From Smithella sp. (GTDB lineage Bacteria > Desulfobacterota > Syntrophia > Syntrophales > Smithellaceae), in contig JBEKMY010000001.1 of NCBI GenBank assembly GCA_049523355.1, positions 76,454 through 140,453 on the forward strand: 64,000 nt of DNA, written 5' to 3'. Positions 4,092-61,619 of the stretch are shown here, piece after piece (the stretch's first letter is position 1; each line of letters starts with the position of its first letter). The position numbers and the translations under genes are program-made. The notes below the pieces were generated by a model, which did not search any database, was not told where the DNA came from, and saw nothing but the letters and a program-made list of their open reading frames with translations.

Positions 4092-4140
4092 GAGGTGCAA
4101 TGATGAATAGTAATATTCTTTGCCGGTAAAAGCCGAAAGG

Positions 4141-4256
4141 TTTTGCAAAACGCTCATCTGCCGCGTTGCACTGCAAACCGCACCGCTCAACGTATTTTTA
4201 TATACGCCTCGCGATTCGTTTTTTGTTCGCCTTGCATCTCTGGCATTTTTGAACAG
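4141..4256 (+). repeat. Intergenic repeat, family A copy (forward), between folC and lptD
   Basis: Collinear with 38924-39049. Shared blocks are caaaacgc(y)catctgc(s)gcgttgc, a central acgtat..atacg hairpin, and cgccttgcatct..ttttt(r)aacag. Confidence 0.7.
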
Positions 4257-4354
4257 TGAATAATCGCGGGGCTTTAAACAATCCCATTTCATAAAATAAC
4301 CTTATATGATAATAAAAAAGTAAGAAAAAGGCGGTCTTATCAAACAAAGATAAA

Positions 4355-6850
4355 ATGATGAATGCAAGCAGACATAAAATATTAAAATCAGAAAACAACA
4401 GTATAATCTATGTATTAAAATTAGATTTAACGATTGCCTTTCTGATGGCGATAATAATTTTATTTTTATCTCCCGCAGCTTTTGCTGTTGAGGCCGGCAG
4501 CATTGACAATGACACTTCCGGCGATGTGTGCGTTCAGGGGGAAGTAACCATAATTTACAGCGGTGACTCTGGTTATGCCGGTGACGATGAGTTGAATAAT
4601 AAAAAAGAAGCCGCTCCCGTTAAGGACAATGTCCTTCCAAAAAAATTTGATGCTGAAAGTAATGAGAATCATGTGAATATCGAAGCGGACAGCATGGATT
4701 ACGACAATGTTAGTGATGTGTATCACGCTAAAGGGAAAGTAAGCATAATTTACAGCGGAGCCGCTCTCTGGGCCGATGACGTGCAGTTGGATAATAAAAA
4801 TAATGTTGCCACAGCTCAGGGTAACGCGTTTCTTAAAATGGGAGAAGATACTCTGCGGGGCGAAAAAATTGTTTTAAATATTGAAGACAAAACAGGCGCT
4901 GCTTATATGGCCCATGCCTTTTACGCAAGGAATAATTTTTATGTGACGGGCGATAAAATTGAAAAAACCGCAGAGAATACATATTTTATAAAACAACCTG
5001 TTGCCACAACTTGTGATGGCGCTAAGCCTGATTGGGAAATCGTCGGCAGTGAAATGAATGTAACCGTTGAAGGCTATGGTATGATGAAAGATGCCCGGTT
5101 CCTTGCGGAAGGTTTGCCGGTGTTCTATTCCCCGTATCTTCCATTTCCGGCGAAAAGTGAACGTCAGTCGGGATTTCTTATTCCATATTTTTCTAGTTCA
5201 AGTAATGATGGCATCGATATAGAAGTTCCTTATTTCTGGGCTATTTCACCCCAGATGGATGCGACTTTTTACCAGCATTACATCGAAAAAAGAGGATTTC
5301 AAGAAGGTGCGGAATACAGATACTATCTGGGGAATAATTCCTTCGGGACTTTTTATGGCGATTACCTCGAGGACACGGAGCGTATCACCGATACAACCTA
5401 TGAGGCAACAAGCCGCGACTGGCAGGACACGCATAAGCGCTGGTCTTATTATTTTAATAGTCAAACAAATTTTGATCCGCAATTTTATGTAAGAACCGAT
5501 ATAATAAATGTATCCGACAAATGGTATTTTCAGGATTTTTCAGCTCGTAATTACTATCTTGATAATTATGCCGAAACGACAGGGGACAATTTTAAAAATG
5601 TTCCTTTCAAGGCCGACCAGACTCTTCGTTATTTAGAATCAACAGCCAGCGTGTTTAAAGGATGGTCTAATTACAGTTTGACGGGATCGATAAACACCAC
5701 ACAAGATTTTAATGCCGTCAATAATGATCAAACTTTGCAACGATATCCGGAGCTTGTTTTTACCGGCAGTAAACAGCAATTTATGAATACGCCATTATAT
5801 TATGAATTTACCGGAACTTATGATTATTTCTACAGCGGAGAAGGACAAAAGGGACACTACATTGATTTTTCACCAACCGTTTCCATGCCTTTTAATTTAT
5901 CCAGCTATCTTAAAGTAACTCCGCAGTTTTCTCTCAAAGAAACACTTTGGGACCGCGATGACAATCAAATCGGTTCAAACAGTAGAACAGGTGATACAAC
6001 TATCTATAACGCGTCATTATCCTTGAGTAGTCAGGTCTCCCGAGTATTCGATGTAAATATAATAAATTGGGAAAAAATAAGACACGAAATAAAACCGGAA
6101 ATAATCTATTCTTATGTTCCCAACGTATCCCAGGGCAACATACCTTATTATTATTTGCCTGCTTTCTCACCGTTTATGATGCCTGGAACAACTCCCATTA
6201 CAACTGCATCCGGTAAAGCTTTACAGGGGATTGTTGGCACTTTTTCTTCTTTTCCCGTCACAACTTCTTCATACGGTTTAGAGGGACAAAATGCCGTTGC
6301 CTGGTCACTTACAAACACCCTTACGGCCAAAGTAAAGGATGGAGCAGGTGCATACAGCTATATGGAGTTTCTACGGCTTAAATTATTTCAAACTTATGAC
6401 ATCAATGAGGCCAATAAAGGCATGGAGGGGATTACTACGGAAAGAAGGCCTGTATCAGATGTCGGGATGGAATTTGATTTTACTCCTCATAAATATTTTT
6501 CTTTTGTGGCGCGTGATCTATACAATGTTTACGGCGGTTGGGATCAATCGAGTTATGATGTGAATGTCAAAGATTGGCGCAGCGATTCGTTGTCAATCGG
6601 TTACCGCTATACAGTGGATTCTGTTGAAGAACTAGACTTTAGCCTCAAAGCGGTAATTGCCAGAAATATTGATGCCACATTTATTTCGAGACACGATCTG
6701 TTTAATTCCCAAACAATAGAAAACACGTTGGGATTTGTTTATCACAAACAATGCTGGAGTATGGGATTGGATTTTACCCAGACTTCTACCGACACTAGAT
6801 TTTTATTTAAATTCTCACTGGCCGGTTTCGACAAGGCTTCGAATAAATAA
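4355..6850 (+). CDS. lptD: LPS-assembly outer membrane protein LptD (OstA/Imp)
   Basis: 831 aa with an N-terminal signal/TM segment, an OstA_N-like region (ADSMDYDN...YHAKGKV...WADDVQLD) and a long Tyr/Asn/Ser-rich beta-barrel C-terminus. Confidence 0.85.
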   Translation: MMNASRHKILKSENNSIIYVLKLDLTIAFLMAIIILFLSPAAFAVEAGSIDNDTSGDVCVQGEVTIIYSGDSGYAGDDELNNKKEAAPVKDNVLPKKFDAESNENHVNIEADSMDYDNVSDVYHAKGKVSIIYSGAALWADDVQLDNKNNVATAQGNAFLKMGEDTLRGEKIVLNIEDKTGAAYMAHAFYARNNFYVTGDKIEKTAENTYFIKQPVATTCDGAKPDWEIVGSEMNVTVEGYGMMKDARFLAEGLPVFYSPYLPFPAKSERQSGFLIPYFSSSSNDGIDIEVPYFWAISPQMDATFYQHYIEKRGFQEGAEYRYYLGNNSFGTFYGDYLEDTERITDTTYEATSRDWQDTHKRWSYYFNSQTNFDPQFYVRTDIINVSDKWYFQDFSARNYYLDNYAETTGDNFKNVPFKADQTLRYLESTASVFKGWSNYSLTGSINTTQDFNAVNNDQTLQRYPELVFTGSKQQFMNTPLYYEFTGTYDYFYSGEGQKGHYIDFSPTVSMPFNLSSYLKVTPQFSLKETLWDRDDNQIGSNSRTGDTTIYNASLSLSSQVSRVFDVNIINWEKIRHEIKPEIIYSYVPNVSQGNIPYYYLPAFSPFMMPGTTPITTASGKALQGIVGTFSSFPVTTSSYGLEGQNAVAWSLTNTLTAKVKDGAGAYSYMEFLRLKLFQTYDINEANKGMEGITTERRPVSDVGMEFDFTPHKYFSFVARDLYNVYGGWDQSSYDVNVKDWRSDSLSIGYRYTVDSVEELDFSLKAVIARNIDATFISRHDLFNSQTIENTLGFVYHKQCWSMGLDFTQTSTDTRFLFKFSLAGFDKASNK

Positions 6851-19200: not shown

Positions 19201-19824
19201 TTGGAAAAGAATAAACAAATGATAGATGAATTCGGCGAGGTAAATTTGCTTGCCCTTAATGAATATGAAGAGCTTGATAAGCGTTACAGCTTTTTATCAG
19301 AGCAAGTAGCCGATTTAAGTTCTTCTCTCAATGTTCTGCAAAGGACGATTACGCGCATTAATAAAATATCCCGTGCCCGATTTGCCGAAACCTTTGAAGC
19401 CGTCAACATCTGTTTTAAAGAAGTATTCGCGCAGATATTTCCGGGAGGTCATGGTGAACTGCTGCTGACTGATGAAAATGATTTGCTGGAAACAGGAGTG
19501 GATATTGATATCCAGGTTCCCGGCAAAAGAAGGCAAAATGTTAATTTGCTTTCCGGCGGTGAAAAATCGCTGGTTGCCGTCGCTCTGATTTTTGCCATTT
19601 TGAAGTATCGTCCGTCGCCGTTTTTGATTTTAGACGAAGTTGACGCCGCTTTGGATGACGCCAACACCAATCTTTTTAACCGGTTGATTAAGGATGTCGC
19701 CCAAAAATCTCAGGTTGTCATGATTACGCACAACAAGAGCACAATGGAAGTTGCCGATACACTTTTTGGCGTGACCATGCAAAAACAGGGGATATCAACG
19801 TTGGTTTCCGTCAATCTCAATTGA
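16276..19824 (+). CDS. smc: Chromosome segregation protein SMC
   Basis: 1182 aa. N-terminal Walker A GPNGCGKSN, long coiled coils, a hinge, and a C-terminal LSGGEKSLVAVALIFAI...LDEVDAALD. Confidence 0.95.
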   Translation: MNLKRLEISGFKSFRDKVVLDFSSGTTGIVGPNGCGKSNIVDAIRWVMGEQRVKALRGKKMDDVVFNGSQDSAPVSMAEITMTLIANGNSFPGAYSDLNEISISRKVVLEGESEYYINRVPCRLLDVKEFFMGTGVGARTYSLVEQGHVSNLVEAKPEDRRLFIEDAAGVSKYKSRKDAAVRKMEATKQNMVRLNDILKEVKSQLNAISRQAKRAEQYKNIKQQSKETELTIALQSHIELAEKGSSLQAERADLQNQDAVIHANIEAKESAIDELKVKLLENEELIARSQHDLYEIKNTISIKEKSIEFARRQIIDTSERKQKDLAEIQLLQTKKDDLIAEIENLQKSAAQAENKITVLKAEHDEGQQKVQELINANKEVINQLEEKKILYIDIVTEKAKLKNMVSSLSKNIEDLVKREERETRELDEDKKMFADLVSKLEMVNEELKKDEVQIIKLEEKKVMASCELERSKSDLQLNEEDVAKIKEENSVKSSRLISLKEFQEASKWCNEGVKKIIENKEHSDKFYGVVADHISVPREYEAAVEAVLGEKLQYVVVKSQEDGVRAIDYLKNYQLGRGSFASVDLRNNNAKTYSDEHLQEAQPLLQKIKVHEDFKQIADCLLGDVLLIPTIENGISLWKKNGFRGTFVTPEGDIISPHGVLTGGSGSAVEKSLLATKREIGELEIEVSALVADLEVKTSQKNNLVSTISRWEEELSQIKTDIHSLEIAVNGRKKDHERFEAETNRLKQRIVVLEFNRQNLNAEKSEAEGKSQIFNADILRKDEEEKEINEVISIFNGKREQSRAEIDEQERYLTGKKIEMASLEEKKEADLRTISRLQNDISAIATENNIKGEEIVSCETQIVELTQTIESEQGLLKELYRDFAAQETILVEKKAEQNREDAQLKIKENEIREIKKKLDELRQQINEMEIQCREVALNSENLKKVIAEKHDVDLECMASGFEKIEEEKLAELIALLEKNKQMIDEFGEVNLLALNEYEELDKRYSFLSEQVADLSSSLNVLQRTITRINKISRARFAETFEAVNICFKEVFAQIFPGGHGELLLTDENDLLETGVDIDIQVPGKRRQNVNLLSGGEKSLVAVALIFAILKYRPSPFLILDEVDAALDDANTNLFNRLIKDVAQKSQVVMITHNKSTMEVADTLFGVTMQKQGISTLVSVNLN

Positions 19825-19832
19825 TTCCATTC

Positions 19833-19940
19833 CTAAATCAAAGCACTATTTTTGTCGGCGTTGTTGTGGGCTTCATCAACGTATATAAAATACACTTCGT
19901 TGCCTTAATTCTGGCCGCCTCAATATCATCTTTGGTTTAG
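19833..19940 (+). repeat. Intergenic repeat, family B copy with terminal inverted repeats (ctaaatcaaag / ctttggtttag)
   Basis: Collinear with 52803-52925. Shared blocks are ggcttc(m)tcaacgtat..aaatac and gccgcc..at(c)ctttg. Located between smc and ftsY. Confidence 0.6.
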
Positions 19941-20016
19941 AAATGGCATAATAGAAATCTTTACTTCTTTATAAAAAATAGTTATTAATTAATCATCATA
20001 CAGGAAAGGTGTTGCT

Positions 20017-27405: not shown

Positions 27406-27454
27406 GATCTCCTCTAATAACGTCTTGCATAAATAGTTATTTATATTTTTTTAA

Positions 27455-27570
27455 CGACTTTATGAAAAAGTTTCATACACAAGGCGTGCAAGACCTGAAG
27501 GATGAGACGTACTTTTTTCGTACGTCGCAATGCCGAAGGTTGCAGCGCAACGTAGTATATGGACTTTTAC
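27455..27570 (-). repeat. Intergenic repeat, family A copy (reverse orientation) inserted between gatC and gatA
   Basis: The reverse complement is collinear with 40204-40313 and 38924-39049. The central perfect hairpin is gacgtac-ttttttc-gtacgtc (27506-27526). Confidence 0.75.
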
Positions 27571-27578
27571 CAAAGCCA

Positions 27579-27866
27579 TTAGTCGATGACTTTGGGCACG
27601 CGGAAGAACTCGCCGCGCGCGTCCGGCGCGTTCGCTAATGAATTTTCCGTGCCGATTGAATCCAATATTTTATCTTCGCGAAACGCGTTAGTCATGGCAA
27701 TCGCGTGGCTCATCGGCTCCACGCCTTTGGTATCCAGCTCGTTTAACTTATCTATGTAGAGCAGAATATCGTTGAGTTGAGCGGTAAATTTTTCTTTTTC
27801 CTTGTCTGTTACTTCCAGACGCGCTAAATTCGCCACATATTCAACTTCCTCAGAGCTTATTTTCAA
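27579..27866 (-). CDS. gatC: Glu-tRNA(Gln) amidotransferase subunit C
   Basis: 95 aa, MKISSEEVEYVANLARLEV..., canonical GatC. Confidence 0.9.
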   Translation of the reverse strand: MKISSEEVEYVANLARLEVTDKEKEKFTAQLNDILLYIDKLNELDTKGVEPMSHAIAMTNAFREDKILDSIGTENSLANAPDARGEFFRVPKVID

Positions 27867-33725: not shown

Positions 33726-35429
33726 ATGAAGCTGAGAGGAACTCAAATACTACTGAAGGCGCTTGAAGAAGAAAAGGTTGATATTATCTTCGGGTATCCC
33801 GGGGGAGCCGTTCTTGATATCTACGATCAGCTTTATAAAAGTAATACGAAACATATTCTGGTTCGGCATGAGCAGGGCGCTGTGCATGCCGCAGACGGCT
33901 ACGCCCGCGCTACGGGAAAAGTGGGAGTGTGCCTTGTTACCTCAGGTCCCGGAGCCACCAATACCGTTACCGGCATTGCCACGGCGAATATGGATTCCAT
34001 TCCTCTTGTCATTTTTACGGGACAGGTGCCCACGGGACTTATCGGTAATGATGCTTTTCAGGAATGCGATATTACAGGAATAACACGTCCCTGTACAAAG
34101 CATAATTTTCTGGTGCGCAATATTGACGAGCTCGCTTCGACGATTAAAGAAGCATTTCATATCGCCCGCTCGGGAAGACCGGGGCCGGTTCTTGTTGATT
34201 TGCCCAAAAATGTGATGGTGGCGGAAACAGAATATGACCCCGCCAATATAAAAATCAGAAACTATGAAGCGTCATACAAACCGGCTCCCAAGAAAATGTC
34301 CAATCTCTTTGAAATGCTGACTTCCGCTAAAAGACCTCTAATCATGACCGGCGGCGGTGTTATCTTGGGAAAGGCCTCCGCGCAGCTAACGGGGCTGGCC
34401 AGAAGATATCAGATTCCGGTTACCGGCACTTTGATGGGGTTGGGTTCTTTTCCGGGGAGTGATTCGCTCTGGTTGGGAATGCTGGGGATGCACGGCACTT
34501 ACTACGCGAATATGGCCATCAGCCACTGCGATTTACTTCTTGCCGTGGGCGTGAGATTTGACGACAGGGTCACCGGCACCATTGAGACATTTGCTGCCAA
34601 CGCCAAAATTGTCCAGATTGATGTTGACCCATCCTCCATTAATAAAAATGTTACTGTCGATTTGCCGATAATCGGCGATACAACAGCGGTACTTAATGAT
34701 TTGCTTAAATTCCTGGATGAACATAATTATACATATGAAGCAGCCCGGCGGCAGGAATGGCTGGGGCAGATTGCCGAATGGAAAGAAAAAGTGCCGTTGA
34801 CATATTGCCAAAACAGCAAAGAAATTAAACCGCAGTTTGTAATTGAAACTCTGCATAAATTGACTAAAAGCGACGCGATTATCACAACGGAAGTCGGTCA
34901 AAATCAGATGTGGACAGCGCAGTTTTTTCCTTTTGAAAAGCCTAATACTTTTATTTCTTCGGGCGGATTGGGGACAATGGGTTTCGGCCTGCCCGCGGCT
35001 ATAGGCATCAAATGCGCCTTTCCGGATAAACAGGTTGTGGATATTGCCGGCGACGGCAGCATCCAGATGAATATTCAGGAACTGGCCACTGCCGCGCAAT
35101 ACAAAATTAACGTGAAAATAGTCCTGTTGAACAATGGCTATCTGGGAATGGTCCGCCAGTGGCAGGAATTATTTTACGAGAAGCGCTATTCGCATACCGA
35201 TATGACTTACGCCCCTGACTTTGTTAAATTAGCGGAGGCGTTTGGCGTTGTCGGTCTGCGTGCCAGTAAACCGGAAGAAGTGGAAGCCGTTCTTCAAAAG
35301 GGGCTTTCCATGGACAAACCGGTGCTGATGGATTTCCGGGTGTCGCGTGAAGAAGGTGTTTATCCTATGGTGCATCCCGGCGATTCAATAGCCAATATGT
35401 CGCTGGGGAGCAGAGAAATGATTAACTAA
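33726..35429 (+). CDS. ilvB: Acetolactate synthase (AHAS) large subunit
   Basis: ThDP enzyme, 567 aa: GYPGGAVLDIYD, GPGATN and GLGTMGFGLPAAIG...GDGS. Confidence 0.95.
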   Translation: MKLRGTQILLKALEEEKVDIIFGYPGGAVLDIYDQLYKSNTKHILVRHEQGAVHAADGYARATGKVGVCLVTSGPGATNTVTGIATANMDSIPLVIFTGQVPTGLIGNDAFQECDITGITRPCTKHNFLVRNIDELASTIKEAFHIARSGRPGPVLVDLPKNVMVAETEYDPANIKIRNYEASYKPAPKKMSNLFEMLTSAKRPLIMTGGGVILGKASAQLTGLARRYQIPVTGTLMGLGSFPGSDSLWLGMLGMHGTYYANMAISHCDLLLAVGVRFDDRVTGTIETFAANAKIVQIDVDPSSINKNVTVDLPIIGDTTAVLNDLLKFLDEHNYTYEAARRQEWLGQIAEWKEKVPLTYCQNSKEIKPQFVIETLHKLTKSDAIITTEVGQNQMWTAQFFPFEKPNTFISSGGLGTMGFGLPAAIGIKCAFPDKQVVDIAGDGSIQMNIQELATAAQYKINVKIVLLNNGYLGMVRQWQELFYEKRYSHTDMTYAPDFVKLAEAFGVVGLRASKPEEVEAVLQKGLSMDKPVLMDFRVSREEGVYPMVHPGDSIANMSLGSREMIN

Positions 35430-35430
35430 A

Positions 35431-35525
35431 GACTTCGTGAAAAGTCTGGGGGCATGGCCTTGCTTCGCATATGCGCTGCAAGGCAAATACCTTGATCGCC
35501 TCGTATCCGGAACTTTTGACGAAAC
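35431..35525 (-). repeat. Divergent member of the intergenic repeat superfamily, inserted between ilvB and ilvN
   Basis: Terminal inverted repeats gacttcgtgaaaagtc / gaacttttgacgaaac. The left end matches the reverse complement of 40303-40319. The central 7-bp hairpin is gccttgc...gcaaggc (35457-35484). Confidence 0.5.
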
Positions 35526-35562
35526 CTTTAAAAAAATAATAAATAATGACGAGGTTAAAAAA

Positions 35563-36083: not shown

Positions 36084-37139
36084 ATGGCAAAAATTAATTT
36101 TGGCGGAGTTATGGAAGATGTCATCACATCGAAAGAATTTTCTTTGAAGAGGGCTCAAAAAGTTTTGAAAAATGAAGTCGTTGCGGTGCTGGGTTACGGT
36201 GTTCAGGGGCCGGCGCAGGCTTTTAATATGAGAGATAACGGTATCAATGTTATTATCGGTCAGGCAAAGGAAGATAAGCGATATTGGAAAAAGGCCATTG
36301 CCGATGGCTGGGTGCCCGGTAAAACGCTTTTTCCTATTGAAGAAGCTGTTCAGCGTGGCACGATTATTCAGTATCTTGTTTCCGATGCCGCTCAGAAAAT
36401 TCTCTGGCCCAAGGTCAAGGCCAATCTGAAAAAAGGCGACGCGCTTTATTTTTCGCATGGATTTTCCGTTGTTTATAAAAAGCAGACCAGCGTTATTCCG
36501 CCTGCTTTTGTAGATGTTATCATGGTCGCGCCTAAAGGATCGGGGACCAGTGTCCGCAGAAATTTTCTGGATGGCAGTGGTATAAACTCCAGTTTTGCCG
36601 TGCATCAGGATTACACCGGACGAGCCATGGAAAGAACTCTGGCTCTGGGCATCGCCATCGGCTCAGGGTTTTTGTTCCCGACCACTTTCCAGAAGGAAGT
36701 TTACAGTGATTTGACCGGCGAACGCGGCGTGCTCATGGGCGCGCTGGCGGGCATGATGGAGGCGCAGTACAATGAACTTCGCAAACATGGTCACACTCCC
36801 AGCGAAGCCTTCAACGAAACAGTTGAAGAACTCACTCAAAGCCTTATTCGACTGGTTGCGGAAAATGGCATGGATTGGATGTACGCCAATTGCTCAGCCA
36901 CGGCTCAGCGCGGAGCTCTGGACTGGCGCCATAAGTTCCGCAAGGCGGTAGCGCCGGTATTTACCGAACTTTATAAATCCGTAGCGAACGGCAAAGAAAC
37001 GGAAATTGTGTTGCGAGTCAACAGCGCTCCGGATTATAAAGTTAAACTGGAAAAAGAACTCAAAGAAATGCGTGATTCGGAAATGTGGAAAGCGGGAGCC
37101 GCCGTTCGCGAATTGAGACCGGAAAAACGAAAAAAATAA
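36084..37139 (+). CDS. ilvC: Ketol-acid reductoisomerase
   Basis: VAVLGYGVQGPAQAFNMRDNG and class I KARI motifs, 351 aa. Confidence 0.95.
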   Translation: MAKINFGGVMEDVITSKEFSLKRAQKVLKNEVVAVLGYGVQGPAQAFNMRDNGINVIIGQAKEDKRYWKKAIADGWVPGKTLFPIEEAVQRGTIIQYLVSDAAQKILWPKVKANLKKGDALYFSHGFSVVYKKQTSVIPPAFVDVIMVAPKGSGTSVRRNFLDGSGINSSFAVHQDYTGRAMERTLALGIAIGSGFLFPTTFQKEVYSDLTGERGVLMGALAGMMEAQYNELRKHGHTPSEAFNETVEELTQSLIRLVAENGMDWMYANCSATAQRGALDWRHKFRKAVAPVFTELYKSVANGKETEIVLRVNSAPDYKVKLEKELKEMRDSEMWKAGAAVRELRPEKRKK

Positions 37140-37260
37140 CAGACGGCTCTGTAAAGAGTCCATCTGCGGAGCCTGCCGAGGTTATGGCCGGTGTAATGCT
37201 GCATGGCAATCTGTATTTTATTTATTAAGAAATTTGTTAAATTAAAAGGGAGAGTAAACA

Positions 37261-38922
37261 ATGAGAAGCGATCTCATGAAAAAAGGTTTGGAGCGGGCGC
37301 CGCATCGTTCACTTTTTAAGGCGATGGGCTATACGGATGAAGAAATTGCGCAGCCATTGATTGGTGTTGTAAATTCCGCCAATGAAATTATTCCCGGACA
37401 CATCCATCTGGATTTAATCACTCAGGATGTTAAAGCGGGAATCCGTACGGCTGGGGGCACACCAGTGGAATTTCCGGTTATCGGCGTTTGTGACGGCATC
37501 GCGATGGGACATGCCGGTATGAAATATTCACTTGCCAGCCGCGAACTGATTGCCGATTCCATCGAGATTATGGCCAATGCTCATCCTTTTGACGCTCTCG
37601 TGTTCATTCCTAATTGCGACAAGATTATTCCCGGCATGCTCATGGCGGCATTGCGCCTGAACATTCCGGCTATTTTCATCAGCGGCGGTCCGATGCTGGC
37701 GGGACAACTTCAGGGTAAAGGCGTCGACCTCATCAGCGTTTTTGAAGGTGTGGGAGCGGTCAAAGCCAAAAAAATGACAGCCGCCGCGTTGAAGCAGCTG
37801 GAGGATTGCGCCTGTCCTGGTTGCGGTTCCTGCTCCGGCATGTACACGGCCAATTCCATGAACTGTGTAACGGAAGCGCTTGGTCTTGGATTACCCGGCC
37901 ATGGAACTATTCCGGCGGTGCTGGCTTCCCGTCACCGGCTGGCCAAACATGCCGGGATGAAAATAATGGATTTACTCAAGCGCAACGTCAGGCCGCGCGA
38001 TATCTGTACTCTTGCCGCTTTTAAAAATGCCATCGCCGTGGATATGGCGCTTGGTTGTTCCACCAATACCGTTTTACATATTCCCGCCGTTGCTCATGAA
38101 GCGGGAATCAAGCTCGATTTAAACCTCTTCAATAAAATCAGCGGGGAAACGCCCAATCTCTGCAAGCTCAGTCCAGCCGGACATCATCATATTGAAGATC
38201 TGGATGCGGCAGGTGGCATTCAGGCCGTAATGAAAGTAATCAGCGCCCTGGGCGTGATTGATGAAAAGGCAATTACCGTAACCGGCAAAACAGTCGGCGC
38301 CAATTTAAAAAACGCACGTGTTTTGAATACTGACGTAATCAGAACTTTGAAAAATGCCTATTCACAGCAGGGCGGCATCGCGATTTTGCGCGGTAATCTC
38401 GCGCCGGATGGAGCGGTGGTGAAACAATCCGCAGTGGCGCAGGCGATGCAGATAAACGAAAGCAGGGCCCGCGTGTTTGATTGCGAAGATGACGCCATCG
38501 CGGCAATCCTGGGCGGCAGGATTAAAGGCGGCGACATTGTGGTTATCCGCTATGAAGGACCCAAAGGCGGCCCGGGCATGAGAGAAATGCTTTCGCCCAC
38601 TTCAGCAATCGTGGGAATGGGGCTGGATAAGACAGTGGCGCTTTTGACGGACGGACGTTTCAGCGGCGGCACGCAGGGCGCGGCAATCGGCCACATATCG
38701 CCCGAAGCCGCGGAAGGCGGACCGATCGCGCTTGTAAAAGAAGGCGATATTATTGCCATTGATATTCCGGCCAAAAAGCTGAACCTGAAAGTAAGCGATC
38801 AGGAACTGGCTAAGAGAAGAAAGAGTTTAAAGCCGTTTAAACCGGCAATAACGTCAGGCTATCTGGCGAGATACGCCAAGTTGGTGACGTCGACGTCAAC
38901 GGGCGCAATCTTCAAAGACTGA
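37261..38922 (+). CDS. ilvD: Dihydroxy-acid dehydratase
   Basis: 553 aa: [26 protein letters not shown] and [15 protein letters not shown]. Confidence 0.95.
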
Positions 38923-38923
38923 T

Positions 38924-39049
38924 GGGGCTGTCCCAAAACGCCCATCTGCGGCGTTGCGCTTCGCCTTTCGTCATTGCGACGTATGCACAAAATACGTCTC
39001 ATTTCTCAAGGCTCGCGCGCCTTGCATCTGAACGTTTTTAAACAGCCCC
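38924..39049 (+). repeat. Intergenic repeat, family A (most complete copy), with terminal inverted repeats ggggctgt..aaaacg / cgttttt..acagcccc
   Basis: It starts 2 nt after the ilvD stop. The central perfect hairpin is gacgtat-gcacaaa-atacgtc (38978-38998). Collinear with 4141-4256, 27455-27570 (reverse complement), 40204-40313 and 41422-41457. Confidence 0.75.
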
Positions 39050-39054
39050 CAAAT

Positions 39055-39141
39055 GTTTTTAAATACGTATGCGGAGCCGACTCCTCGCCGCCGCGTTATC
39101 CATTGAAATCAAAATGGTATATATAGTAATCTTTGGTTTGA
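39055..39141 (+). repeat. Right-half fragment(s) of the family B repeat abutting the family A copy
   Basis: aaatacgtatgcggagccgactcctcgccgccgcgttatccattgaa...tggtat matches 52866-52925. The following atctttggtttgag matches the right end of 19833-19940. Confidence 0.55.
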
Positions 39142-39169
39142 GATAGGAATAAAATAAGAAGTAACTGTC

Positions 39170-39192
39170 ATTGCCGGGTTTGACCCGGCAAT
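39170..39192. repeat. REP-like 9-bp palindromic hairpin (attgccggg-tttga-cccggcaat)
   Basis: Perfect inverted repeat read directly from the sequence. Only a single copy occurs in this window. Confidence 0.4.
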
Positions 39193-39450
39193 CCAATGTT
39201 ATATGTGTAATCTTTTCAAAATAGATTATACGGGATTATATGTATCGCTTAAGCGACCACAGCCGTTTGAACCAAAGGCAAGTTTTGTAATCGCCTGCAA
39301 CGAGTCTTAGATCTATCCAACATGCTTTAAGGTTAAGCGAAAAGGATATTTAAGCAACACTCCGCAAAAGACACGACCTGATAAATAAATGTTATTCTGT
39401 ATTTTACCCTGATTTTTAGAATTCTCGTATAGTCGTTCTTTTTTGTTTTT

Positions 39451-40194: not shown

Positions 40195-40203
40195 TAACAA
40201 CTC

Positions 40204-40313
40204 CGTAAAAAGTCAATATACTACGTTGCACCGCATCCTTCGTCCTTGCGGCCTACGCTTAAGGAGGCCGCACTCCTCAGGCTTTGTGCGCCTTGTCTGG
40301 GGAGCTTTTTACG
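40204..40313 (+). repeat. Intergenic repeat, family A copy between hldD and kdsB
   Basis: Terminal inverted repeats cgtaaaaagtc / gagctttttacg. The 5' part is nearly identical to the reverse complement of 27540-27570. The central hairpin is replaced by gcggcct-acgcttaagg-aggccgc (40248-40271). Confidence 0.75.
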
Positions 40314-40372
40314 AAGTCGCTTAAAACAGTATAATCGAATAAAATGCTTATTATTTTGTTTCTTAAATATTT

Positions 40373-41421: not shown

Positions 41422-41457
41422 GAGCTGTCCCAAAACACCCATCTGCGGCGTTGCGCC
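41422..41457 (+). repeat. Truncated 5' end of the family A repeat
   Basis: gagctgtcccaaaacacccatctgcggcgttgcgc matches 38925-38959 with 2-3 mismatches and then diverges. Confidence 0.7.
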
Positions 41458-41468
41458 GCAAACTGCAT

Positions 41469-52452: not shown

Positions 52453-52803
52453 ATGAAATTAATAAATTATGAATCCGTTACACCAACTCATTTTGATAAT
52501 GATGCGGCCAGGGGAGTTGCCGGTCGTGTGGTGGCGGGCAAGGCTGACGGAGCGAAAAATTTTTGCATGCGGATTTTTGAAATTGCTCCGGGAGGGCATA
52601 CGCCGAAACACACTCATCCGTGGGAACATGAAATGTTTATTCACTCAGGTGTTGGTGAAATTTACGGTAACGGTAAGTGGAATCCGATCAAGCCGGGAAA
52701 TGTTGTTTTCATGCCTCCTGATGAAGAACATCAGGTTAGAAATACTGGCAAGGAACTCTTGATTCTGGCTTGTTTGGTGCCGTCAATCGCACCTGAATTA
52801 TGA
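52453..52803 (+). CDS. Cupin-domain protein
   Basis: AGGAG RBS before the ATG at 52453. Cupin motifs GGHTPKHTHPWEHEMF and GNVVFMPPDEEHQVRN. Confidence 0.75.
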   Translation: MKLINYESVTPTHFDNDAARGVAGRVVAGKADGAKNFCMRIFEIAPGGHTPKHTHPWEHEMFIHSGVGEIYGNGKWNPIKPGNVVFMPPDEEHQVRNTGKELLILACLVPSIAPEL

Positions 52804-52925
52804 TACCAAGCCGCATTCTTTGGCTAACTTTGTTAGCAGCGTCGTCGGCTTCCTCAACGTATTAGAAATACGCCTGCGGAGCCTCCTCCTTGCCGCCGCG
52901 TTATCCTTTGAATGCGACTTGGTAT
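52803..52925 (+). repeat. Intergenic repeat, family B, complete copy with 16-bp terminal inverted repeats (ataccaagccgcattc / gaatgcgacttggtat)
   Basis: The TIRs match 15/16. The central hairpin is cgtatt-aga-aatacg (52858-52872). It fills the convergent gap between the cupin gene and the FAD oxidoreductase gene. Confidence 0.7.
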
Positions 52926-52947
52926 AAAAATTTGTGTGATATTATAT

Positions 52948-54659: not shown

Positions 54660-55025
54660 ATGAAGAAAGCTTTATGGTATATGGTTGGCGCGATTTTCCT
54701 TTTGTCAACTTTAGCTTTTGCCGCTGATAAAACCGCTTCCCCAGTTAGGACAAATGTTGTAAAGGCCGCCAGGATGCATGCTACAGGAAAAGTTGTCGAA
54801 ATTTCCAATGAGTCAATTAAGATTGAACGCACCGTTAAAGGCGATATAGAAAACATGGAGTTTAATTTAGATAAGCCATCTGCCGGTATCATGGTAAATG
54901 ATCCCGTGAAAATAGATTACACGGAAAAAGATGGCAAACTAACAGCATCGAGAGTGGCCAAAGTCATTTTGAAGAAAAAAGAAGTTAAACCGTCTGGAGC
55001 AAAGTCGGCCTCAGATAAAAAATAG
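54660..55025 (+). CDS. Small secreted protein (121 aa), a beta-rich domain with a Lys-rich tail
   Basis: Signal peptide MKKALWYMVGAIFLLSTLAFA|AD, GGAGG RBS. I did not recognise a family. Confidence 0.65.
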   Translation: MKKALWYMVGAIFLLSTLAFAADKTASPVRTNVVKAARMHATGKVVEISNESIKIERTVKGDIENMEFNLDKPSAGIMVNDPVKIDYTEKDGKLTASRVAKVILKKKEVKPSGAKSASDKK

Positions 55026-55104
55026 TTGCAGTTTATTTGGAGTCCCTTAATTTTAAGGGGTATTATTAAAATAAAAAAAGTAATTTAACAAGGAGGGTTT
55101 TAAG

Positions 55105-55323
55105 ATGAAACGTTTAGGATTGTTTGTTATCGCATTGGTTTTCGCATTTTGCACCACCGTTATGGCTGCTGAGCCTGCTGCCGCTCCCGCTGCTGCTCCC
55201 GCTGCAGAAAAAGCTGCTCCCGCAAAAGCAGAGAAAGTAAAGAAAGCAAAGAAAGCAAAGAAAGCAAAGAAAGCAAAGAAAGCTGAAGAGAAAACTGAAG
55301 AAGCAGCACCCGCAGCAAAATAA
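55105..55323 (+). CDS. Small secreted Ala/Pro/Lys low-complexity protein (72 aa)
   Basis: AAGGAGG RBS. Signal peptide MKRLGLFVIALVFAFCTTVMA|AEP. The mature part is AAP repeats followed by (KKA)n, ending in EEAAPAAK. Confidence 0.65.
   Translation: MKRLGLFVIALVFAFCTTVMAAEPAAAPAAAPAAEKAAPAKAEKVKKAKKAKKAKKAKKAEEKTEEAAPAAK
55239..55283 (+). repeat. Perfect 9-bp tandem repeat aaagaaagc x5 (encodes the KKA repeats)
   Basis: Counted directly from the sequence; five identical units. Confidence 0.95.
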
Positions 55324-55350
55324 GGTTGTAAAAACTTTATGTAGTTCAAA

Positions 55351-55385
55351 TTAAGGGACAGGTATTACTTGTCCCTTAATTTTGA
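55351..55385 (+). terminator. Rho-independent terminator (ttaagggaca/tgtcccttaa followed by ttttgag)
   Basis: 10-bp stem plus T-run, 28 nt after the stop codon. Confidence 0.65.
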
Positions 55386-55427
55386 GTATATTAAAATAAA
55401 AAGTGATTTAACAAGGAGAATTTTAAG

Positions 55428-55736
55428 ATGAAGCGTTTAGTATTACTTGTAGTAGCATTAGTTTTCGCGTTTAGCACCACCGCAATGGCAGTTGATCAGG
55501 CAACAGTGGCCGACACAAAGGTTGAGAAAGCAGCAGTGAAAGCCGACGTAAAAGTTGATAAGGCCGCAGTGAAAGCCGACGCAAAGAAAGCCAAAGACGA
55601 AAAGAAAGCTGAAGCAAAGGCAGCCAAAGCCGCAGCGAAGGCCGACGCAAAGAAAGCCAAAGCTGAAAAGAAAGCCGATGCAAAGAAAGCTAAAGCCGAC
55701 AAGAAAGCTGAAGAAGCAGCTCCCGCAGCAAAATAA
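55428..55736 (+). CDS. Small secreted Ala/Lys low-complexity protein (102 aa), paralog of 55105-55323
   Basis: AAGGAG RBS. Signal peptide MKRLVLLVVALVFAFSTTAMA|VDQ. Repeats of the AAVKAD/AKKAKAEKKA type and the same C-terminus EEAAPAAK. The upstream 60 nt is nearly identical to that of 55105. Confidence 0.65.
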   Translation: MKRLVLLVVALVFAFSTTAMAVDQATVADTKVEKAAVKADVKVDKAAVKADAKKAKDEKKAEAKAAKAAAKADAKKAKAEKKADAKKAKADKKAEEAAPAAK

Positions 55737-59975: not shown

Positions 59976-61619
59976 CTAACTCAAGACAGCTCCCTTGGCC
60001 GCGGAACCAACCATTTTAACGTACCGCCGCATATATCCGGCAGGGATACTGCGCTGGGGCGCAATCCATTTGCCAAGCCTCTTTTGCATTTCATTGTCGC
60101 TTATGGCCACGCTCAGGGAACGCGCCGGGATATCAATCATAATTTCGTCGCCGTCGATGAGCGCCGCCATAGGACCGCCCACATAGGCCTCCGGCGAAAC
60201 ATGGCCAATGCACGGCCCCGCCGTGGCGCCCGAAAAACGGCCATCGGTGATGAGCGCCACATTCTTGATGCCGTACAACTCCAATCCCATCGTGACTGCC
60301 AGTGTTTCGGGCATGCCCGGGCCGCCCCTGGGGCCTTCATAGCGGATAACGATTACCGAACCTTCCCTGATGCTTCCTCCGCGAATGGCTGACAGAGCTG
60401 CCTTCTCACCTTCGAACACCTGTGCCGGACCTTGGAATACACGCATTTCAGGAGCAATGGCCGAGGTTTTGACCACCGAACCGTCGGGGGCCAGGTTGCC
60501 GAAGAGAATGACCGTGCCGCCTTCGGCCTGAAAGGCATGGGCCTTATCAGGGATAACGGTTTCATTTATGATAACTGCTTCGGCGATTATCTGTTCCACA
60601 GTGACGCCTCCTACATTCAAGGCTTCTAAATGCAGATCATCAGCCAGGCGTTTCATAACCACCGGAACGCCACCCGCCATATAAAAATCAATTAAACCAT
60701 ACGGGCCGCTGGGAGAGATTCCGCACAGAGTCGGAATCTTGATGCCCATCTCGTTAAAGCGCTCAAGGGGCAATTCCAGGCCCAGTTCATGGGCAATAGC
60801 CGGCAGATGCAGAGTGGCGTTGGTTGAACCGCCAATAGCCAGATTTACAATAAGGGCGTTTTCCAACGCCTGTGGTGTGATAATTTTCGAGGCGGTCAAA
60901 TCTTCATCAAGCAGTTCCACGATCCGCTTGCCGGCCTCACGCGCCATTGCAAGCCTGCCGGAATGAAAGGCCGGAATGTTGGCTGATCCGGGCAGAGCCA
61001 ATCCCATGGCCTCGGCAAGACATTGCATGGTGTTGGCCGTACCCATGACCTCGCACGATCCACATGTGGCGGCTGTGCATGAGGCGAGTTTGTCGAGCGG
61101 GTCGGTATAATATTTATGGTCTGCCGCTTCGTTTTTACTTGGTTTGAAACGGATATCCCATGAATTGGGACCTCCCGTGACAAAAATAACCGGCATGTTG
61201 AGTCTTGCCGCCGCCATGATCATGCCCGGTATGATCTTGTCGCAACTCGCGATAAAGACCAGGGCATCGTAGCGCATGCTGCGGACATGGGTTTCGATGA
61301 TATCGGCGATAAGATCGCGTTGGGCCAGGACAAAGCGCATACCTTCATGTCCCTCGGTCATGCCGTCGCACGGCGCGGGCACATTGAATTCGAACGGCAA
61401 TCCGCCCGCAGCATGGATTCCTTCCTTCACGCGCTGAGCGATCGTGTTTAAGTGCATGTGGCCGGGATTAATCTCAGTGAAGGAATTGGCGATTCCTATA
61501 ATGGGTTTAACCGAGGCTTCGTTGATGTCCACGCCGGTGCCCATAAAAATGTATCGCCTTACAATACTGATCGGGAAATCGCTTTCGTCGAAAATTGCCT
61601 GGCTTTTGGGTTTCTTCAT
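59976..61619 (-). CDS. IlvD/Edd-family dehydratase, second paralog (substrate unknown)
   Basis: 547 aa: [36 protein letters not shown] and RYEGPRGGPGMPE. It is clearly diverged from the ilvD at 37261 and is G+C-rich. Confidence 0.85.
   Translation of the reverse strand: MKKPKSQAIFDESDFPISIVRRYIFMGTGVDINEASVKPIIGIANSFTEINPGHMHLNTIAQRVKEGIHAAGGLPFEFNVPAPCDGMTEGHEGMRFVLAQRDLIADIIETHVRSMRYDALVFIASCDKIIPGMIMAAARLNMPVIFVTGGPNSWDIRFKPSKNEAADHKYYTDPLDKLASCTAATCGSCEVMGTANTMQCLAEAMGLALPGSANIPAFHSGRLAMAREAGKRIVELLDEDLTASKIITPQALENALIVNLAIGGSTNATLHLPAIAHELGLELPLERFNEMGIKIPTLCGISPSGPYGLIDFYMAGGVPVVMKRLADDLHLEALNVGGVTVEQIIAEAVIINETVIPDKAHAFQAEGGTVILFGNLAPDGSVVKTSAIAPEMRVFQGPAQVFEGEKAALSAIRGGSIREGSVIVIRYEGPRGGPGMPETLAVTMGLELYGIKNVALITDGRFSGATAGPCIGHVSPEAYVGGPMAALIDGDEIMIDIPARSLSVAISDNEMQKRLGKWIAPQRSIPAGYMRRYVKMVGSAAKGAVLS

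Follow-up and report, generated by a model that had tools for sequence, protein, structure and literature searches.

The noncoding repeats scattered through a 64,000-nucleotide stretch of a Smithella sp. genome assembly (contig JBEKMY010000001.1, positions 76,454 to 140,453; hereafter the window, with position 1 being its first letter) are best explained as hairpin elements of the miniature inverted-repeat transposable element (MITE) type. We assign a probability of about 0.8 to the reading that they represent two related families, here called A and B, of which A would be mobilized by a DDE-type transposase encoded elsewhere. The elements of family A are short and noncoding, share terminal inverted repeats, carry in well-preserved relatives a target duplication with a fixed length of 6 bp, and are present at some orthologous sites and absent from others. 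The repeats appear to form a new family or small superfamily, and the kind of element is well known. An earlier note, made from the letters of the window alone, had left the choice between REP/BIME-type and MITE-type repeats, and it is the MITE description that agrees with the terminal repeats of ~20 bp, the 6-bp duplication found in relatives, the genome-specific subfamilies, and the mixture of filled, empty, and decayed sites presented below.

Ends, target sites, and occupancy of family A

The canonical A unit is an imperfect hairpin of ~128 nt that is bounded by terminal inverted repeats of ~20 bp (TGAYGNNNTCGTAAAAAGTC). It consists of a left end of this sequence, an imperfectly palindromic core of ~90 nt (...GCGTTGCGCTGCATCCTTCGTCATTGCG-GCGTAC-loop-GTACGC-CTCATTCCTCAGGATTTGCGCGCCTTGC...), an inverted copy of the end, and often a second right end. 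The consensus reads TGACGGCTTCGTAAAAAGTCC-GGATGCTGCGTTGCGCTGCATCCTTCGTCATTGCGGCGTAC-loop-GTACGCCTCATTCCTCAGGATTTGCGCGCCTTGCCTGCGG-ACTTTTTACGAAGCCGTC, and the second right end, where present, is GACTTTTTACGAGnnCATC and follows after 8-20 nt. Unit lengths range from 72 to 180 bp, and variants with internal hairpin insertions occur in several of the loci fetched from other genomes (L030, L043, L074, and L094; such loci are designated by L numbers throughout).

The earlier note had proposed a search for copies in related genomes, and these proved to be abundant. A degenerate 27-nt pattern representing the left core (CGTTGCRCNNCNNCYTTCGNCNTTGCG) matches at least 120 stretches in contigs from a collection with one genome per species. 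Among the matches listed, these stretches come from 71 metagenome-assembled genomes (MAGs), almost all of which belong to the Desulfobacterota, with hosts in the Desulfobacterales, the Syntrophales (including Smithella and Syntrophus), and the Syntrophobacterales. The same matches include three Nitrospirae MAGs, one of which has three contigs. Single matches on very short contigs assigned to Dehalococcoidales and Porphyromonadaceae may be binning errors. The elements are thus common among sulfate reducers and syntrophs. Within 822 kb of pattern-matched loci, a profile hidden Markov model (HMM) built exclusively from copies outside the genome of the window identifies 153 A sites.

The end motif TGAYGNNNTCGTAAAAAGTC, when permitted up to 4 substitutions, occurs 401 times in the loci. 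Most occurrences lie at the ends of A cores (236) or serve as second right ends (77), and the other 88 fall outside recognized A cores, where some of them bracket unrelated interiors. Such interiors between A-type ends of ~20 nt are found in L034, L048, L066, L095, and L105 as well as at positions 35427-35530 of the window, and the elements in L066 and L105 are minimal end-bounded forms of only 72 bp. Because the ends bracket quite different interiors, they are the common denominator of the family.

A 6-bp direct repeat flanks the outermost ends of the composite A element. This repeat is perfect for 22 of 53 copies and agrees at 5 or more of its 6 positions for 32 of them, compared to 1.0 and 5.7 copies, respectively, when the partners of the flanks are shuffled; other registers perform worse. 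The target repeats conform to the consensus AWNNWT, often with C before and G after, and their sequence differs from copy to copy. Examples are AATATT (L039 and L108), ATTCTT (L015 and L099), AACCTT (L016 and L028), AATGAT (L019), and CTGCAG/CTACAG. Furthermore, the copies form genome-specific groups, with a mean pairwise identity of 0.89 within a MAG (0.94 in JBBIWB, and up to 0.97) versus 0.79 between MAGs.

Occupancy of individual sites was compared in 80 relatives' loci that were fetched through the IlvD protein. The spacer between the kdsB-like gene and the epimerase gene is filled with an A copy in L125 and L130 as it is in the window, and it holds an element with similar ends and a different interior in L128. 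The same spacer is empty in L134 (18 bp) and in L020 (the genes overlap at ATGA), where the empty sites belong to species other than that of the window and are compared at the level of the spacer rather than the exact junction. The ilvC-ilvD spacer is occupied by a full A copy in two loci (L126 and L146), by only the right half in L138, by nothing but a left end in L128, and by a remnant in the window. Directly after the ilvD stop codon, a full B copy is present in L125, L126, L137, and L138, an A copy in L130, L140, and L156, and an A copy followed by the right half of a B copy in the window and L127, versus nothing in L129, L132, L159, and others. Right-end B fragments homologous to window positions 39129-39153 also lie after ilvD in L125, L127, and L156. 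The spot after ilvD is a recurrent insertion site.

Two further observations concern the arrangement of copies at shared or adjoining sites. The gatC-gatA spacer of a Syntrophus MAG (L032, 4036-4164) carries an A copy whose position and orientation match those of the copy in the window, and the adjacent GatA proteins are 78% identical. These two copies belong to different subfamilies (CCATATAC type in the window versus GGATGC type in L032), which argues for separate insertions at a hot spot, or for replacement of one copy by another, rather than simple vertical descent. In addition, the right and left ends of neighboring elements abut with exactly one 6-bp target between them in L057 (~4150-4400), L096 (~5860-6060), and L040 (~2430-2490). 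In L057, the junction reads ...GAGCATC-AGATTT-GACGGC..., and AGATTT is found again on the far side. Such an arrangement suggests either that an element inserted into a target already duplicated around a resident copy or that the ends were joined directly, as they are by insertion sequences that move by copy-out/paste-in transposition.

A mechanism that would produce these patterns can be proposed. A DDE-type transposase encoded elsewhere would bind the ~20-bp ends of family A. Insertion would take place at AT-rich 6-bp sequences between genes or between the cistrons of an operon, frequently close behind a stop codon or immediately ahead of a ribosome-binding site, and would duplicate the target. 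Bursts of such events would give rise to the genome-specific subfamilies. Thereafter, point mutations, internal replacements, and deletions would erode the copies, some of them to halves or single ends. Copies that are co-transcribed with their neighbors, such as the one between gatC and gatA, would form long RNA hairpins.

Copies in the window and the proposed link between the two families

The window was examined by repeat finding, blastn, and nhmmer profile searches, and ten to eleven repeat sites were recovered for families A and B together, which bears out the earlier count of 10 or more. Two models of family A were used: an HMM of Smithella-type copies and the independent HMM made from copies of other genomes only. 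Four full A copies are present. The first (4136-4258, + strand) lies between a Mur-ligase-like (folC-type) gene and lptD and is decayed (E = 1e-21 with the Smithella-type HMM). The second (27454-27580, - strand; E = 6e-32, hairpin z = -5.6) occupies the gatC-gatA spacer, where it begins 1-2 nt past the gatC stop codon, lies upstream of gatA, and shares the orientation of the gatCAB operon; its neighbors carry GatC, amidase, and GatB domains in the Pfam scan. The third (38923-39048, + strand; E = 6e-34, hairpin z = -6.1) starts right after the ilvD stop codon (TGA, 38920-38922), reads GGGGCTGTCCCAAAACGCCCATCTGCGGCGTTGCGC...GCGCGCCTTGCATCTGAACGTTTTTAAACAGCCCC over ~126 nt, and is followed by a second, different segment. 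The fourth (40196-40320, + strand; E = 2e-30) separates the epimerase gene from the kdsB-like cytidylyltransferase gene and is oriented opposite to both. With the outside-genome HMM, copy 4136-4258 yields E = 9e-8, and the other three copies yield E-values of 7e-31, 2e-28, and 3e-28.

Partial copies were also found. A truncated A copy that retains only the left third (41423-41466, + strand) lies between the epimerase gene and a Cu-oxidase_4 gene. It is 97% identical to positions 38927-38959 and is detected with E = 1.5e-6 by the Smithella-type HMM and with E = 0.003 (41431-41460) by the outside-genome HMM. The matching spacer of L020 holds a full A copy in the reverse orientation. On the - strand, the truncated copy has a hairpin of 10 pairs and then a T-rich run (41441-41463), immediately past the Cu-oxidase_4 stop codon, and this transposon relic may have been co-opted as a terminator. 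The chimeric remnant that had been noticed at about 37160-37185 was recovered as a left-end A remnant (37139-37175, + strand; outside-genome HMM E = 0.003 at 37139-37169), in which the left inverted repeat and CCATCTGCGG are fused to AGCC... within the ilvC-ilvD spacer. The site in the ilvB-ilvN spacer, previously taken for a divergent reverse-complement copy at 35431-35525, is better described as an end-sharing variant of 104 bp (35427-35530; hairpin z = -5.4). Its terminal inverted repeats (TAAAGACTTCGTGAAAAGTC and TAAAGGTTTCGTCAAAAGTT) are of the A type, with end-motif matches at 35427-35446 (+) and 35511-35530 (-), and the outside-genome HMM gives a weak match (35429-35527, E = 0.03). Only the ends are held in common with A and the interior is unrelated, and therefore its orientation is not meaningful. 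The A copies of the window are ~73% alike and are therefore old. They are decaying relics.

Family B has a conserved interior, a length of ~125 bp, and arms of ~18 nt that are variable yet complementary. Eleven copies were aligned, and B copies also occur in Smithella MAGs. The window contains a full copy of what we call the 19826 subtype (about 19826-19945, + strand; B HMM match 19802-19962, E = 1e-34; hairpin z = -3.5), which begins 2 nt past the smc stop codon (19822-19824) and lies upstream of ftsY. A second full copy (52803-52925, + strand; B HMM match 52789-52943, E = 2e-44; hairpin z = -4.6) is bracketed by TA...TA and starts with the final base of the stop codon (TGA, 52801-52803) that ends a cupin-domain gene. 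B copies of L035 and L138 share 88-95% identity with it. In L035, which comes from Smithella sp. SPRUCE 522, the gene for the signal recognition particle (SRP) RNA (4407-4504) is followed 4 nt downstream by a full B copy at 4508-4635. In most B copies, TA both precedes and follows the element (TGA-TA-CCAAG...CTTGG-TA-TAA), an arrangement that fits, and does not prove, an origin like that of IS630/Tc1 elements.

The pile-up of three fragments after ilvD described in the earlier note was recovered. Abutting the A copy at 38923-39048 is the right half of a B copy (39057-39133, + strand), which matches positions 86-164 of the B HMM (E = 7e-15) and shares 82% identity with 52866-52926. The third fragment (ATCTTTGGTTTGAGATAGGAATAA, 39129-39153, + strand) is read as the right terminus of another B element, one of the 19826 subtype: it aligns locally to 19927-19951, a weakly significant match in that 1 of 500 shuffles scores as high. 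A plausible history is that the A element landed in, or recombined with, a resident B element whose left half was then lost, next to the stub of an older B element.

The proposal that A and B form a superfamily is partly shown. Its sequence basis consists of three short blocks that are collinear in both families (GCnGCGTYG, ACGTAT-loop-ATACGYCT, and CGCCTTG) and of one hybrid copy; overall A-B similarity is not significant by HMM. The hybrid is the A copy at 4136-4258, previously thought to bridge the families, whose center is of the B type (B HMM match 4186-4210, E = 0.011) and which is thus an A/B hybrid.

Alternative readings and comparison with known elements

Several observations weigh against the MITE reading. 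Neither the window nor the 1.5 Mb of fetched loci yielded an autonomous element with A ends, and searches of plasmid, phage, and viral collections revealed none either. Although the 6-bp duplication is evident in relatives, none is recognizable at the copies of the window itself or at Smithella-type A copies located after ilvD. For family B, no strictly orthologous empty site was found, and a TA duplication cannot be distinguished from an extended inverted repeat. The middle of the A inverted repeats is variable with compensation and the core is conserved, which is unusual for an end bound by a transposase, and selection could be acting on the hairpin itself. Finally, when compared with co-directional genes on the basis of crude gene calls, 36 elements have the same orientation and 17 the opposite one, a modest bias that hints at some constraint at the transcript level.

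As had been predicted for the whole element, long imperfect hairpins form in 6 of 7 window copies (z = -3.4 to -6.1), with the fold of 4136-4262 having decayed (z = -0.7). In an alignment of 65 A copies, the whole element forms one long hairpin of 46 pairs, in which 90% of the cells are paired versus 36-48% with slid partners, and 32 pairs have changes on both sides versus 16.4 in shuffles. Compensating variants in the middle of the inverted repeats include GGCTTCGT/ACGAAGCC, GGCCTCGT/ACGAGGCC, GATGCCGC/GCGGCATC, and CTGTTGAA/TTCAACAG. By comparison, almost no change is seen in the A5/T5 tracts, in the outermost GAYG, or in the internal loops (CTTCGTCATTGCG and CTCATTCCTCAGG). Selection on a structure would be expected to leave such a pattern, which can also arise when different master copies are inherited and when both ends coevolve with variant transposases.

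These features raise the question of whether the elements are chiefly host-functional structured nucleic acids, such as an RNA stabilizer, an attenuator, a terminator, or a protein site like those of ERIC and BIME, with their conservation across orders reflecting such a role and transposition being only their means of spread. We consider this unlikely. The covarying stems, the nearly invariant loops and tracts, the orientation bias, the A copy at the same gatC-gatA position in two genera, and the terminator-like truncated copy at 41441-41463 all speak for it. However, decay proceeds freely at orthologous sites, where close relatives may retain a half copy, a single end, or no copy at all; both orientations relative to genes occur; and the conservation of the left core is inflated because copies were collected by a left-core pattern. 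The numbers of G-U and A-C mismatches (about 44 versus 56) show no asymmetry between the strands, which indicates the absence of a strand-specific RNA signal. Full copies are not scored as intrinsic terminators, and this identity was rejected for them; the only terminator-like sites at elements are the truncated copy already mentioned (- strand) and a weak central hairpin with 3 G-C pairs at 38978-38998. An internal promoter was likewise rejected, since TTGACG-N17-TATGCT is present at the left end of only 26 of 143 copies, and the window shows no excess of promoter-like sites relative to shuffles. No Rfam family matches the elements. The orientation bias and the gatC-gatA copy in two genera keep a transcript-level effect open, and any host effect, such as on termination or mRNA stability, would be secondary.

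A related idea, which we likewise regard as unlikely, is that the core is a functional structured module, either an RNA or a single-stranded DNA hairpin bound by a conserved host or transposon protein. This module would have spread across the Desulfobacterota and Nitrospirae on interchangeable ends, with A, B, and hybrid elements carrying one "cargo hairpin"; alternatively, an undescribed, hairpin-dependent form of movement would keep the arms complementary. If the core were shown to be functional, the elements would represent an ERIC-like case in a different phylum and, unlike ERIC, one with clear evidence of its way of spreading.

The earlier note also considered repeats of the repetitive extragenic palindromic type (REP/BIME). 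Such elements, which include REPINs, would owe their spread to a RAYT transposase (Y1, IS200-like) that acts on hairpins in single-stranded DNA. The resemblance lies in abundant, intergenic, long imperfect hairpins whose arms remain complementary through compensating changes, and the lack of a detected DDE partner also favors this explanation. It is nevertheless very improbable, and this half of the earlier suggestion is not supported. A 6-bp target-site duplication is not made by REP/RAYT or IS200/IS605 elements, and the units are 70-170 bp with 20-bp terminal repeats rather than paired REPs of 20-40 nt. RAYT genes, which are usually flanked by the repeats, have no counterpart here, in that no Y1_Tnp domain was found in the window. 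That the similarities reflect chance or low-complexity matching between AT-rich spacers is hardly credible, and this explanation is already refuted for the main copies. The fragments 35429-35527, 37139-37169, and 39129-39153 are each only weakly significant alone, but E-values in the window reach 1e-44, the other-genome HMM reaches 7e-31, and hundreds of related copies exist elsewhere. Integron attC sites form cassette arrays next to an intI integrase and have R''/R' (GTTRRRY) boundaries. This identity was rejected because the elements are scattered among housekeeping operons (ilvBNCD, gatCAB, and smc/ftsY) and no integrase domain is present in the window.

For the MITE reading, the closest analogues with respect to mechanism are Correia (CREE) of Neisseria, RUP of Streptococcus pneumoniae, and Nezha of cyanobacteria. 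Like these, the elements are noncoding, 70-170 bp long, and bounded by terminal inverted repeats; they have a short target duplication, many intergenic copies, genome-specific subfamilies, and a hairpin that spans the whole element, and they are often co-transcribed. Correia and RUP elements make a TA duplication. Family A differs from both in its ends (TGAYGNNNTCGTAAAAAGTC) and its 6-bp AWNNWT duplication, and it departs from known MITEs in that its right end is often doubled, its core is more conserved than the middle of its ends, its hosts are Desulfobacterota and Nitrospirae, and no parent insertion sequence was found in the searches made. Family B resembles MITEs derived from IS630/Tc1-mariner elements in its TA brackets, length of ~125 bp, and inverted ends. 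It differs in that TA could belong to the inverted repeat, the arms vary yet remain complementary, and no IS630-like transposase was found.

ERIC (IRU) of Enterobacteriaceae and Vibrio is the closest analogue as a conserved, transcribed palindrome of ~127 bp with insertion variants. Similarities include an imperfect palindrome located in transcribed intergenic regions, conservation across genera, no known transposase, and size variants created by internal insertions at fixed places, which correspond to the internal hairpin insertion variants of A. There is no sequence relation, however, as the ERIC2 22-mer has 0 matches with 3 or fewer mismatches in the window, and A has clear target-site duplications and recent within-genome bursts. 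To our knowledge, neither of these has been established for ERIC.

The search for a parent element extended to several candidate sources. Inverted pairs of ends located 0.4-6 kb apart in the 1.5 Mb of loci comprise only two chance pairings of separate copies. Open reading frame (ORF) families that recur beside the elements encode FabF-like synthases, radical-SAM/SPASM enzymes, Nuo/Mrp subunits, ABC ATPases, and PFOR, and were rejected as transposases. A 1.1-kb difference between L060 and L056 is accounted for by a 412-aa housekeeping ORF, next to which lies a conserved downstream gene, and not by an insertion sequence. An end-motif scan of viral contigs revealed 13 stretches with a few MITE copies and no transposase-bearing element, and the plasmid and phage collections gave no blastn match to the composite consensus. 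Insertion sequences of the IS481, IS1634, IS21, and ISNCY/ISDol1 (Desulfococcus) groups make duplications of 4-7 bp (6-7 bp for ISNCY/ISDol1), and they offer a lead based on duplication length, not on a comparison of sequences.

Likewise, no described family was matched, in keeping with the earlier note, in which the sequence was not recognized as a described family. Rfam gave 0 matches at the gathering score on the elements in the window, and at E ≤ 1 it gave nothing on the elements for canonical copies in L024, L035 (including its B copy), L059, and L068; these searches returned only an SRP RNA and chance matches that lie off the elements. Literature searches, including searches with sequence strings, uncovered no paper that contains the element sequences or describes such elements in these taxa. 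The family is also absent from the main text of a 2024 survey of MITEs in Nucleic Acids Research (PMC11602168). Both families appear to be uncatalogued, with ISfinder, Dfam, and large MITE catalogues outside the comparison.

Genomic setting and other features of the window

The repeats account for about ten odd noncoding stretches in the window. They occupy the folC-like/lptD, gatC/gatA, ilvB/ilvN, ilvC/ilvD, epimerase/kdsB-like, and epimerase/Cu-oxidase_4 spacers as well as the positions after smc, ilvD, and the cupin gene. Some insertions lie within essential operons (gatC-gatA, ilvB-ilvN, and ilvC-ilvD), where an RNA hairpin of 60 bp could affect expression. As the earlier note had stated, no transposase is encoded in the window: Pfam scans of ~59 ORFs, which are nearly all candidate ORFs of at least 70 aa, revealed no transposase, integrase, or Y1 (RAYT-type) domain, and only housekeeping genes were seen among the ORFs scanned. 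The exact IlvD protein was found on peat metagenome contigs, and the window is syntenic with the Syntrophus MAG (L032) and a Syntrophales MAG (L020), whose proteins are 60-78% identical. This synteny and the B copies of Smithella MAGs assign the window to a Syntrophales-like bacterium of the Smithella/Syntrophus type, with a genome from peat.

The elements mark a putative transposase that has been active across Desulfobacterales, Syntrophales, and apparently Nitrospirae, which implies exchange between co-resident anaerobes. They could also help to tell strains apart in peat populations of Smithella and Syntrophus.

Of the 153 A sites, 105 are clear of ORFs, and the remaining sites overlap naive ORF extensions only. 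Loop lengths vary and insertions occur out of frame, which argues against a conserved ORF in A. The elements do generate spurious short ORFs in MAG annotation. Examples are seen in the element at L060 5916-6185 (MRRTLAYAAMTKDEAQRSIRTFY... and MRRTLAYAAMTKDEAQRSIRTFYVAV...), and such ORFs could be annotated as hypothetical proteins. Many copies are found at contig ends (L010, L013, L048, and L071) and therefore probably break short-read assemblies.

At 39167-39194, the window contains its only instance of a small, perfect palindrome (GTCATTGCCGGGTTTGACCCGGCAATCC). Its motif family (GTCATTSCSGG-loop-CCSGSAATC) has 15 occurrences in 13 fetched loci. Palindromes of this type are located after ilvD in L142 (by regular-expression match) and in L149 and L156 (by eye), and also inside end-bounded elements of L095 and L128. 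They constitute a second short repeat family that is unrelated to the elements.

Three other regions of the window were noted. An ORF of 492 aa (764-2239, + strand) has no Pfam family at E ≤ 0.01. The region 54660-55733 includes two Lys/Ala-rich ORFs with 9-nt and 33-nt tandem repeats, duplicated flanks, and no Pfam family, and these may encode histone-H1-like or low-complexity basic proteins. A second dehydratase of the ILVD_EDD family is encoded at 59976-61616 (- strand), and the long "inverted repeats" between this gene and ilvD were rejected as repeat elements, as they reflect the coding similarity of the two paralogues.

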